A stretch of DNA of 64,000 nucleotides from Candidatus Levyibacteriota bacterium. GTDB taxonomy: Bacteria > Patescibacteriota > Microgenomatia > Levybacterales > GWA1-39-11. A program made the translations under genes and the position numbers. The DNA lies in contig JBLMVJ010000035.1 in NCBI GenBank assembly GCA_050255815.1, positions 10,727-74,726 of the forward strand, written 5' to 3'. Under the pieces are notes generated by a model. It was not told the DNA's origin. It did not search any database and saw only the letters and a list, made by a program, of their open reading frames with translations. This document shows, one piece after another, positions 34,269 to 37,359 of the stretch (position 1 is the stretch's first letter; every line of letters begins with the position of its first letter).

Positions 34269-34699
34269 CTGTCAATCCAATCAGTAATTAAGAAAGACTT
34301 AAAAACTTAAAACTGATGGTGATACTCTTGTTACCAAGAGCCTCTGACTATACCTTCATCCGCCAACTGGCGGAGCTAGTCGTATGATACAGATTATAAA
34401 TTTCTCTTTATGAGATGAATCCATATCTCACCCTCTCACCTATGCTGGTGAGGGGTTCAGTCGATAGGGTCCAAAAGAAATTTAAAATTCAGAAGTTAAA
34501 ATTCAGAATTAAATTCTTAATTCTGAAATCTGAATTCTTAACTCTATTTGAACCTCGGTATTACCCTCTTGTGTTCAGAAAGTAGGGTTTCACCGATTTG
34601 GACTAGTTATTTAAATTATTAGTACCTTGTTTTTTGACTCAAATACTAATAAATACAGGCAAGAGTATTACTACTCAGGCGCCCCGATATTTTCATATA
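34269..34699 (-). other. Putative group I intron (~431 nt, no ORF) in 23S domain V at the GGCACCU|CGAUGUCGGCUC junction (E. coli ~2500 region)
   Basis: Exon sequences that are contiguous in E. coli are separated here. The 5' exon ends in U and the insertion ends in G. Confidence 0.6.
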
Positions 34700-35229
34700 A
34701 GGTGCCAAACCGCATCGTCGCTGTGGACGCTTGGATGCGATCAGCCTGTTATCCCCGGGGTAGCTTTTATCCGTTAAGCTACGTCCCAACCACTAAGGAA
34801 CGCAGGATCACTAACACCTGCTTTCGCACCTGCTCGACTTGTAGGTCTCGCAGTCAAGCTGGCTTGTGCGTTTGCACAATACGCTCCGATTTCCGTCCGG
34901 AGTTAGCCAACCTTTGTACGCCTCCGTTGCACTTTAGGAGGCAACCTCCCCAGTTAAACTGCCCACCAGACACTGTCTTTTAGCCGTATTTTTATGCGGC
35001 ATTAAAGTAATGCTCACTCATCTTAAAGAGAGGTATTTCATTGATGACCGAAGTCTCCCTCCTATACTAAACAGTTAAAATAAGCTTGCAAATGTCAAGC
35101 TACAGTAAAGCTCCCGGGGTCTTTTTGTCCTAGGACAACCAGGCCGCGTCTTCACAGCCATCTCAATTTCGCCGTGTAAATGTTCAAGACAGTTACTCAG
35201 TCGTTCTACCTTTCGTGCGGGTCGGAACT

Positions 35230-35548
35230 CCATTGTTTTAATGTTCCAACATGGAACCTCACAGTCGCCTGTGAGATCGGACTATATCTTTCCCTTACCA
35301 AATTGGTGAGGGATCTAGCGTCTAGTCTCTGAGGGTTTTCCGATAAATCGGAATCTTCCCTGCTGATTGGCTCCACCAAGCAGATTTTTACTCTTACGAG
35401 TACTGTTGGATACTGAGCTGTTCCAGCAAATAGCTAGATTTTACACTCATTTAGGTTAACGATTGTGTTCTTACGTGACTGTTTTGCTTGTTCCTGATGT
35501 GTATCCCGATTAGATCGGGACTCGGGCAAGTTGATTTGACCCAAACCA
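35230..35548 (-). other. Putative group I intron (~319 nt, no ORF) in 23S at GUCGGGU|AGUUCCGACC (E. coli ~1951 site)
   Basis: Exons flanking the insertion are contiguous in E. coli. The 5' exon ends in U and the insertion ends in G. Confidence 0.6.
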
Positions 35549-37359
35549 ACCCGACAAGGAACTTCGCTACCATAGAACAGTTATAGTTACTGCTGCCGTT
35601 CACCGGAGCTTTAGAAAGCGGCTCCACCTTGCGGTTTCACCACCCACTATTGACTTACCGGCACTGGGCAGGTGTCAGCCCCTATACGTTACCTTTCGGT
35701 TTTGCAGGGACCTGTGTTTTAGATAAACAGTCGCTAAGTAATCTTTTGCTTAACCTGGATGTTACTCCAGGCAGGGCATCTCCCATAGGTTACGCCCAGC
35801 TTTTGTTGCCGAGTTCCTTGAACATTTGTCTCACGGTCGCCTTAGTCTACTCGACCAATCCACCTGTGTCGGTTATGCGGTACGGCAAAATATAGCACTC
35901 CTCACGAATCTTTTCCTGAAGACTGAAACTTACGATCCTCACCCTACTTTCTTGCGATTTCAGATTTGCATTCGCCACTTAATTAAACACTTTGACGGAT
36001 TTGCCCATCAAAACTATCTTATGGCTTGGACCCTGTTTACAGGGCGATCCTTTCCACTCTTGTCCATCCTTGAGTAATAACGCACTATACTCTGTAGCAG
36101 AATATTAACTGCTTGTCCATCCGGCTACCCCGCGCTTTATGACGGGCCACCGTTAGGAGCCGACTAACGCTGCGCTGACTTACATTGCGCAGCAAACCTT
36201 GGATTTTCGGCGGACGCCGTTCTCAGGCGTCATTCGCTACTCATGCCGGCATTCTCACTTGTAAACGCTCCACCATACCTTACAGTACAGCTTCGCTGCA
36301 TTTACGACGCTCCCCTACCACTTGCTCCGATAAATCGGAGTCAAATCTCCATCGTCGGTATTAAGCTTAATCCTCGATCATTTCCGGCGCCATTCTCCAA
36401 TGTCGACTAGTGAGCTGTTACGCTTTCTTTAAAGGATGGCTGCTTCTGAGCCAACCTCCTAGCTGTCTATGGAAAATGACTTCCTTATCAACTTAGCTTA
36501 AATTTAGAGACCTTAGATGGGAGTCTGGGCTGTTTCCCTTTAGACCCACGAGCTTAGCCCCGCAAGTCTGACTCTCTATTAAGTTTTTACGGTATTCGGA
36601 GTTTGATTGATCCTGAAAAGTTGCCTCTCCAGAGACCATTCAGTGCTCTACCCCCGTAAAAACATACAAAAGGCTATACCAAAATATATTTCGGGGAGAA
36701 CCAGCTATCTCCAGGTTCGTTTAGTATGTCACCCCTTACCACAAGTCGTCTCAGATCATTGCTGCGATCACGAGTTCGGGCCTTCCTCATCCTTTCGAAC
36801 AAGTTCACCCTGCTCATGGTAAGCTCACCTGGTTTCGGGTCTTTTGCAATGCGCATTTAGGTATCCCAGTTAGAGATCGCTTTCACTATGCCTCCCCCCT
36901 CACCTTTCCAACGAAAATTCCAACCTTTGTTTTAAATCGAGCTTGTTTCGATAATATTTCAAAGTGGTAATCCTCATTAGAATGGTGAGGGGTTAGACTG
37001 CGCAATACAAAAACTCACCGGCTCATTCTTCAATAGGCACGACGTTATACCCTTGCGGGCACTTCGTCTGCTTGTTAGCTAATAGTTTCAGTAACTCTTT
37101 CATTCCCCTCCCGGGGTGCTTTTCACCTTTCCCTCGCGGTACTAGTTCACTATCGGTAGATGTTGATATTTAGCTTTGGAGCGTGGTCGCCCCGGCTTCC
37201 CACAGGGTTTAATCGTACCCCATGGTACTCAGGAACAGGCAAGAAGTGAAAATCATTTCAAATACGGGACTATCACCCTCTTTGGTCTCTTTTTCCAAAA
37301 CGTTCTTCTATGATTTCCATTTGTGACTTCTTTTGCATTTAAGCAAGCCGTCCTACAAC

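Follow-up and report, generated by a model that had tools for sequence, protein, structure and literature searches.

The stem that recurs in and around the 23S rRNA gene of a Candidatus Levyibacteriota genome, a member of the candidate phyla radiation (CPR), probably represents, in the variant carried by this genome, the terminal inverted repeat of a small selfish element, which would encode a minimal GIY-YIG nuclease of the Ssn/UPF0213 type. In the stretch analyzed here (64 kb, from here on the window), the copies would then probably be one full element (in domain I of the 23S gene), one long copy devoid of the gene (at helix 25), and three hairpins made up only of the arms. Gene and arms evolve as one unit, the copies within one genome share one variant, and the elements occupy the place of outer helices in structured RNA genes. 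The original prediction had seen the same stem at five places and had taken it to mark every insertion in the 23S gene. Five hairpins were indeed found, formed by 8 of the 10 copies of the 8-mer CCCTCACC and all located in structured RNAs. Two of them are the boundaries of insertions (IVS1 and IVS2, for intervening sequence); those in the two introns are internal outer helices of the intron instead. Four of the hairpins had been given correct coordinates, while the fifth had been placed at 12346-12368, ca. 10 nt off its true location (12337-12357).

The host gene and the complete element, IVS1, are located as follows.

Positions 33883 to 37949, minus strand: 23S rRNA gene (Rfam LSU_rRNA_bacteria, 2126 bits, model positions 1-2925).
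Positions 37361 to 37660, minus strand: IVS1, complete element, replacing the tip of the domain I hairpin.
Positions 37361-37374 and 37647-37660, minus strand: IVS1 arms, AAACCCCUCACCUUUUU...AAAAAGGUGAGGGGGG, 14 perfect pairs with 272 nt between them, holding the open reading frame (ORF).
Positions 37365 to 37616, minus strand: nuclease ORF, 83 aa, GIY-YIG (Pfam PF01541, E = 1.7e-15).

The gene is ~1,140 nt longer than the bacterial model, and the alignment to the large-subunit (LSU) rRNA model assigns the excess to four insertions. The first is IVS1, with 281 extra nt in the domain I hairpin (model positions ~274-295), and the second is IVS2, with 89 nt versus 4 in the model at helix 25. The third is a group I intron (B) after the U1951 equivalent and the fourth a weaker group I match after U2500; the intron models of Rfam matched neither IVS1 nor IVS2. 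The 83-aa protein is a bare GIY-YIG domain, with PF01541 as its sole domain and no extra DNA-binding domain. It is the only ORF of the element, in which no transposase domain was found, and no further or decayed copy of it was found in the window. The stop codon (TGA at 37365-37367) falls within GGTGAGGG of the 3' arm (AAA AGG TGA GGG). Only the arm variant with a central A provides this in-frame stop, and that variant marks the clade found at the 23S site. The catalytic-type residues Y5, Y16, R26, H30, and E50 are invariant in 35 homologues, and the ratio of nonsynonymous to synonymous substitutions (dN/dS) against orthologues is 0.06-0.29, with dS saturated (>1). By consensus scan, no sigma-70 promoter could be found for the ORF, which has a TATAAT 6 nt before its ATG and no -35 element.

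Relatives of the nuclease (71-72% identical) are found on metagenome contigs at the same 23S site, between exactly the same arms. Identical arms (AAACCCCTCACCTTT / AAAGGTGAGGGGGGTTG) are present at the IVS1 site in L001-L012 and L015, the latter a Patescibacteria metagenome-assembled genome (MAG) that has three CCCTCACC hairpins in its 23S gene. The 23S genes sharing these arms are only 74-79% identical to the one in the window. Since the host genes have diverged and synonymous sites are saturated while the arms have remained constant, the arms are conserved as sequence and not merely as pairing. Thus, the expectation that the stem should be present in homologous insertions of relatives was borne out, with the same arms bracketing orthologous GIY-YIG genes.

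The second insertion is a gene-less copy.

Positions 36896 to 36992, minus strand: IVS2, 97 nt, a rod-like hairpin without ORF that replaces helix 25.
Positions 36896-36904 and 36984-36992, minus strand: IVS2 arms, CCCCUCACC...GGUGAGGGG, around 79 nt.

Its predicted fold has a free energy of -52.1 kcal/mol (z = -9.0). The arms of IVS1 and IVS2 have 11 + 14 nt in common, one side sharing AACCCCTCACC and the opposite side AAAGGTGAGGGGGG. Occupied and empty sites could both be recovered, as the original prediction had proposed to look for. The helix 25 site is empty in L007 (GTCTAAG-TCTGC-TTT-GCAGA-CGGAGGC), and the domain I site of IVS1 is empty in L033 and L082, where the same AAACC...GGGGUUG base encloses unrelated helices. 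The lack of any relationship with the helices of relatives at these positions indicates that the host helices have been replaced, rather than opened at the loop; this comparison could be made for helix 25, the IVS1 site, helix P8 of intron B, and stem I of a hammerhead candidate described below. Two other ideas on IVS2 were tried and discarded. As a deletion derivative of the nuclease gene, it gave global alignment scores to four full elements of 62-68, versus 69 +/- 4 for shuffled interiors. A degenerate hammerhead suspected by eye (CUAAUGAG...CGAAAC) has no UH cleavage site beside the stem and no match in Rfam.

The family to which the GIY-YIG ORF of IVS1 belongs is common in Patescibacteria. 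We surveyed 80 loci from species-representative genomes, mostly of this group, and at 63 the gene lies within an exact inverted repeat 11-22 bp long (~0.005 per locus expected by chance). The repeats have a common outer motif, (A)YCC-C-N-CAC(A)C (e.g., ATCCCGCACC, ACCCCCACACC, ACCCAGCACC, and CCCCTCACC), and the arm variant tracks the phylogeny of the protein, clade by clade, and not the host site. Gene-less copies (~100 nt), which are common, and arm-only copies match the variant of their own genome (L015, L089, and L047, among others), while the interiors of the gene-less copies are unrelated to each other. Hence, the reading of the stem as a family of insertions with cargo in the loop is strongly supported by relatives as far as the non-intron insertions are concerned. 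It did not hold for the introns and the leader, where outer helices have been replaced, nor for the manner of insertion, since the elements take the place of helices and do not open their loops. Screening of 2.9 million viral contigs for carriage by phages gave only three partial matches.

The hosts recognized by Rfam or ARAGORN are 23S and 16S rRNA, ribonuclease P (RNase P) RNA, and tRNA genes beginning at the 3' arm, to which the leaders of prepilin genes have to be added. In RNase P RNA, the element makes up helix P3 in eight MAGs (L017, L021, L030, L036, L053, L061, L065, and L083; flank AGGAAAGUCCG) and is found at the P16/17 position in L032. Six of the element-bearing RNase P RNAs have further helices with the same arms (L021, L017, L032, L036, L053, and L065), and the arm-only hairpin of L036 equals the arms of the element over 16 nt. 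The pattern of the window is thus repeated independently in another RNA. These additional arm-only helices are found at P12, P16/17, or 3'-terminal positions. At the tRNA loci, the start of the gene is located within the 3' end of the element or immediately behind it (L025 5277, L029 5275, L050 5275, L054 5269, L067 4975, L070 5256, L072 5266, and L073 5252). In L050, L025, and L029, a second copy of the initial 9-11 nt of the tRNA precedes the 5' arm, resembling a short target duplication.

In the prepilin leaders, the GIY-YIG ORF lacks a stop and continues in frame into a pilin-like gene at seven loci (L014, L023, L024, L026, L037, L043, and L063). The fusion joins the pilin just before the G|FTLIE cleavage/methylation motif, where the 3' arm encodes G-x-G, giving a giant leader of the type M-[nuclease]-linker-KSGAG|FTLIEL...pilin (e.g., L024 139-864). 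Pfam recognized both GIY-YIG and N_methyl in three of the seven fusion ORFs. The fused nuclease would be set free by prepilin peptidase. No earlier report of nuclease-prepilin leader fusions was found in the literature searched. Gene-less hairpins of ~100 nt with the arms are also present at the 5' ends of tandem pilin paralogues in L089 (3460-3563, 4800-4902, 6255-6358, and 8451-8553), L041 (6785-6883), and L060 (2112-2264), the last with four 39-nt tandem repeats of the 5' half. Their 5' arm is located in the 5' untranslated region (UTR), and the interior supplies the ATG and the leader (MDFHPKKFPTQKESSLLKSGAG|FTLIE), with TTTAC directly repeated on either side of the copy. The pilin-like gene of the window itself (47925-48485, minus strand) has an ordinary short leader (MRFSAPKLIETRAG|FTLIEL, ...CGTGCCGGATTCACT...) with no arm sequence, i.e., it is an empty site.

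The remaining copies in the window are three short hairpins, of which the only perfect one is outside the rRNA.

Positions 12328 to 12404, plus strand: type III hammerhead candidate, ending 6 nt before the ATG of a hypothetical ORF (12411-13211).
Positions 12336 to 12358, plus strand: hammerhead stem I, UCCCUCACC-AUUAU-GGUGAGGGA, which is the fifth hairpin.
Positions 12337 to 12357, plus strand: fifth hairpin, perfect, with a 5-nt loop (expected by chance, 0.00).

The original prediction was right in placing a hairpin here, in an intergenic leader; it is stem I of the hammerhead candidate and not a plain leader hairpin. The match to Rfam Hammerhead_3 (29.2 bits, E = 1.2e-4) is below the gathering score (48.5), with a complete core (GUC, CUGAUGAG, and CGAAAC) and predicted cleavage after C12335. 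The leader of an orthologue of the downstream gene (metagenome contig L093, 64% protein identity) keeps the core at 36-97 (GCGUC / CUGAUGAG / CGAAAC); its stem I is UCCCGAU-CAA-AUCGGGA, and its stem II is unrelated yet paired. Both candidates fold as three-way junctions, with fold z-scores of -5.5 and -4.4.

The other two short hairpins are in the group I introns of the 23S gene.

Positions 35231 to 35548, minus strand: group I intron B, after the E. coli U1951 equivalent (Rfam Intron_gpI, 80.5 bits).
Positions 35292 to 35312, minus strand: intron B hairpin, CCCUCACCA-AUU-UGGUAAGGG, with one C.A mismatch.
Positions 34269 to 34699, minus strand: putative group I intron A, after the U2500 equivalent (Intron_gpI, 24.4 bits, under the gathering score of 50).
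Positions 34431 to 34455, minus strand: intron A hairpin, CCCCUCACC-AGCAUA-GGUGAGAGGG, with one bulged A.

The hairpin of intron B falls on the P8 columns in the alignment to Intron_gpI, between P3' and the AAGAUAUAGUC element. P8 is hypervariable in this class of introns, in which we recovered 113 distinct sequences. The possibility that CCCUCACC was simply inherited as P8 was rejected, as neither an L1951 intron of L033 nor the introns most closely related to intron B have a P8 that resembles it. In intron A, the same model places the hairpin in an outer unaligned insert, 5' of the P7/P8/P7' core. A role as P8 is not supported by this alignment, CUCCGCC-AGUU-GGCGGAUG followed by AAGGUAUAGUC being a better fit for P8/P7'. 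The hairpin of intron A is flanked by a second P7- and J8/7-P7'-like sequence (CGACUGAA...GAGAUAUGGAUUC), and the intron also has a long, AT-rich, near-perfect hairpin made of GAAUUCAGA-type repeats (34466-34554, minus strand), so it may be composite. On the whole, descent of the three short hairpins (introns A and B and the hammerhead) from the element seems likely.

How far could this be due to chance? CCCTCACC has 10 exact copies counting both strands, versus ~1.9 expected; none of 100 shuffles reached 10 (maximum, 5), and it is the most over-represented among 23,694 canonical 8-mers (Poisson p ~1e-5). The two lone copies, at 29398 and 53744, are partnerless, and their number equals the chance expectation (~2). 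Another pair, TCCTCACC/GGTGAGGA at 41985/42283, is inside a long ORF and was taken as chance. What speaks against chance is how far the identity of the arms extends, the perfection of the tight hairpin, and the comparative data.

Several points weigh against descent of all five hairpins from one element. The excess of the 8-mer, which the original prediction had set against random frequency in the genome, is there, but it is not significant after correction for ~24,000 tests. Moreover, 5 of 60 Markov simulations (8%) produced a family of three hairpins that had 8-nt arms in common and spanned no more than 400 nt. Because of both, the count alone is only suggestive, and the statistics of the window by themselves are indecisive. 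In addition, the arm counts and the feature survey refer solely to the 64-kb window of the source genome. The short hairpins have no interior that could be compared, and two of them have imperfect arms (in both introns, the 5' arm is exact and the 3' arm is not). The basal UCCC/GGGA pairs of hammerhead stem I are native, which leaves only ~5 bp of it as diagnostic. The hairpin of intron A may derive from an intron-B-like segment and not represent a separate event. Lastly, there is no target-site duplication at rRNA or RNase P sites, direct repeats being limited elsewhere to TTTAC at pilin sites and 4-9 nt at tRNA sites.

From these facts one could argue that only IVS1 and IVS2 are related and that the short hairpins are coincidental GC-rich stems, or that the two intron copies go back to one source through exchange from intron to intron, the nuclease element having no part in it. 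The failed correction, the simulated three-member families, the imperfect stems, and the partly native stem of the hammerhead all suit such an explanation. So do an AGAUAU-G motif that follows the hairpin in both introns and the CCYCUCAYC-like P8 helices of three more distant introns, the only three of the 113 that resemble the arms. Still, we consider it unlikely. An exact 8-nt arm in an outer helix has an estimated probability of ~1e-4, so that with ~130 helices at risk ~0.01 would be expected. The hammerhead copy is perfect over its 9 bp, and it also agrees with IVS2 and intron A in the base that follows the arm (CCCTCACCA). The combination of the element with arm-only helices of the same variant is found in six independent RNase P RNAs.

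A second explanation, which we find quite unlikely, is that the stem is a recognition module at the RNA level, for RNase III or another RNA-binding protein, with the nuclease gene merely located inside one of the copies. K-turns, which are bound by L7Ae and recur in rRNA, RNase P RNA, and small RNAs, would be a parallel. The location of all five window copies in structured RNAs, a pattern found again in RNase P RNA and 16S rRNA of other genomes, is what such a module would predict. The replacement of helices instead of their interruption also agrees with it, as does the resemblance of the long perfect stems of IVS1 and IVS2 to classical RNase III substrates. However, a stem read by RNase III or another protein leaves unexplained that the arm variant tracks the lineage of the GIY-YIG nuclease across unrelated hosts. 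The same arms are also found in the 5' UTR and leader coding region of prepilins and at the 5' flanks of tRNAs, and cleavage has no evident use in P8 or in hammerhead stem I. Besides, the experimentally characterized relatives, the Ssn nucleases, act on single-stranded DNA (ssDNA) and do not bind RNA (PMC11893778). Very unlikely is a classical homing endonuclease gene in a classical IVS, with the arms as an extended, vertically inherited native rRNA helix and cleavage of double-stranded empty 23S alleles: it could account for the occupation of the same 23S site in several diverged genomes, for the recurrence of the RNase P P3 (8 MAGs) and pilin G|FTLIE sites, and for the GIY-YIG ORFs already reported in non-intron CPR rRNA insertions (PMC11270868), but empty sites lack the arms, a single protein clade with a single type of arm is found in RNase P RNA, in 16S, and at further sites, the protein is without a DNA-binding domain and its profile has only a weak match to I-TevI (E = 1e-3), and the authors of that report place such ORFs outside homing.

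Around the 23S gene, two other RNA genes were identified.

Positions 38222 to 38295: tRNA-Ala, preceding the 23S gene.
Positions 33600 to 33717: 5S rRNA, after the 23S gene.

No 16S gene was found upstream of the 23S gene in the 64-kb window. One protein encoded in the window is 100% identical to an NCBI protein from a Candidatus Levyibacteriota MAG, which places the source in the CPR; exact-sequence look-ups of two window proteins and of P0121, a database protein identical to a third, gave no match. The helix just before helix 25 has unrelated AT-rich or repeat-rich expansions in L001 (6500-6700) and L007 (5400-5520) and arm-type elements in L015, L033, and L082. Another hairpin, GUCCCGAUCUAAUCGGGA, has also been reused; the first hairpin of intron B (35505-35519) and the 23S 5' leader (38039-38053), both in minus-strand RNAs, are identical in it over 18 nt. 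Its stem also forms hammerhead stem I in L093 (45-61) and P8 of a related intron (L181). This second hairpin suggests that the exchange of small hairpins between RNAs is general here.

Assuming that the stem belongs to a selfish element, a mode of propagation can be proposed by analogy with Ssn. The protein would recognize the hairpin in single-stranded (extruded) DNA and nick beside it. Nicking would then cause the palindrome to be copied into other DNA able to form hairpins, in place of the helix already there. Sites at outer helices would tolerate the replacement because, we propose, any stable helix suffices there. As for the large copies, cleavage at their long stem would presumably remove them from the rRNA precursor, as RNase III does for the classical 23S IVS. 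Tentatively, this might amount to an undescribed kind of mobility driven by a hairpin-specific GIY-YIG ssDNA nuclease, in which a palindromic element overwrites resident DNA hairpins and settles where processing by the cell makes it harmless. If true, harmless sites would be the outer helices of rRNA, RNase P RNA, group I introns, and the hammerhead, as well as tRNA leaders, and the nuclease in prepilin leaders would be an in-frame giant leader peptide, releasable by prepilin peptidase.

Most CPR rRNA genes carry insertions, many of which are neither introns nor explained, and the present results would tie at least one class of them (GIY-YIG ORFs together with short ORF-less insertions) to a hairpin-plus-nuclease system of the Ssn type. 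Since this hairpin substitutes for helices in ribozymes of three kinds, a palindromic selfish element seems to have a preferred refuge in the genes of structured RNAs. A cleavage assay needs no more than the protein of 83 aa and a hairpin of 21 nt (CCCTCACC-ATTAT-GGTGAGGG and the CCCGCACC variant), and new sequence specificities of GIY-YIG ssDNA nucleases would be of practical value for cutting single-stranded DNA.

The known systems include miniature inverted-repeat elements with transcripts that RNase III cleaves, such as the Correia elements of Neisseria. The gene-less copies are similar in being ~100 nt long, bounded by inverted repeats, and folded as a rod (IVS2, L015, and L089), but they show no consistent target-site duplication at RNA-gene sites, have no known transposase partner, and have unrelated interiors. 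In REP/RAYT (REPIN) and IS200/IS605 systems, a small nuclease gene is located between inverted hairpin repeats, gene-less palindromes are dispersed over the genome, and an ssDNA hairpin is the presumed substrate. The CPR element shares with both the nuclease gene enclosed by hairpin repeats, the gene-less palindromic copies, and the presumed substrate. In contrast to REP/RAYT, its nuclease is a GIY-YIG and not a Y1/HUH transposase, and its copies replace helices within RNA genes, whereas REPs accumulate intergenically.

Classical 23S IVS, of the helix 25 / helix 45 type, some with ORFs and excised by RNase III, are said to have been described by Burgin et al. in 1990 and by Ralph and McClelland in 1993. 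As in these, the tip of a variable helix (helix 25 included) has been replaced here by a long extended stem that is not an intron, and one copy has an ORF. The differences are that the stems at two different sites are identical, that they belong to a nuclease-linked repeat family also present outside rRNA, and that the ORF codes for a GIY-YIG protein, while the classical IVS protein is a four-helix bundle. For CPR bacteria, GIY-YIG ORFs, placed outside a homing context, have been reported from rRNA insertions belonging to neither group I nor group II introns, along with many short ORF-less insertions at the tops or bases of stem-loops (PMC11270868, 2024). A word search of the main text of that paper found no inverted repeat, palindrome, or hairpin, and "stem" once, referring to the position of an insertion in the rRNA structure. 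Hence, neither a shared stem nor a link between ORF-bearing and short insertions is reported there.

The closest counterpart is the system of Ssn nucleases with their NTS/dRS3/SRM hairpin repeats (Chenal et al. 2025, Nat Commun; PMC11893778), whose authors draw a parallel with REP/RAYT themselves. Ssn are single-domain GIY-YIG proteins (~94 aa) shown experimentally to bind the hairpin repeat in ssDNA and to cut beside it. The layout is NTS-ssnA-NTS, with many dispersed repeats, and NTS/dRS3 has been generalized as the SRM. Neither CPR genomes nor RNA-gene hosts are mentioned in that paper. By tblastn, we found two rhizobial GIY-YIG homologues with canonical SRM hairpins on both flanks, in inverted orientation. 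The CPR family profile matches these SRM-flanked proteins with 55-57 bits (positions 3-80 of 83), and it scores less with the structures of UPF0213 (48 and 43 bits), with SLX1 (27 bits), and with I-TevI. Some results tell against the kinship. The published SRM motif, searched as HGTCWY-N(0-2)-YYVSBRH-N(0-5)-WNVSBRG-N(0-2)-RNCYNB up to 500 bp from the gene on either side, has no match in the window or in the flanks of 80 CPR homologues; the same expression found the published NTS and the rhizobial SRMs, used as positive controls. Unlike in Ssn, a single CPR arm makes no local hairpin, and the arms pair across the gene, which therefore lies inside the loop. A conserved GTC outside the arms, as in NTS, was seen in 14 of 59 loci versus a background of 15% (p = 0.048), a marginal result driven by rRNA hosts. 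CPR copies are also few and mainly found in structured RNA genes and prepilin leaders, whereas Ssn repeats number hundreds and are intergenic. Judging from the sequences, the CPR system may well work like Ssn, membership in which is probable at the protein level. In both, a single-domain GIY-YIG protein of ~85-95 aa is bracketed by inverted hairpin-forming repeats, extra copies of the repeat are present elsewhere in the genome, and repeat and protein co-vary; in many CPR arms, the outer ATCC...GGAT is similar to the cores ATCCTCGGG...CCCGAGGAT and ATTCCC...GGGAAT.

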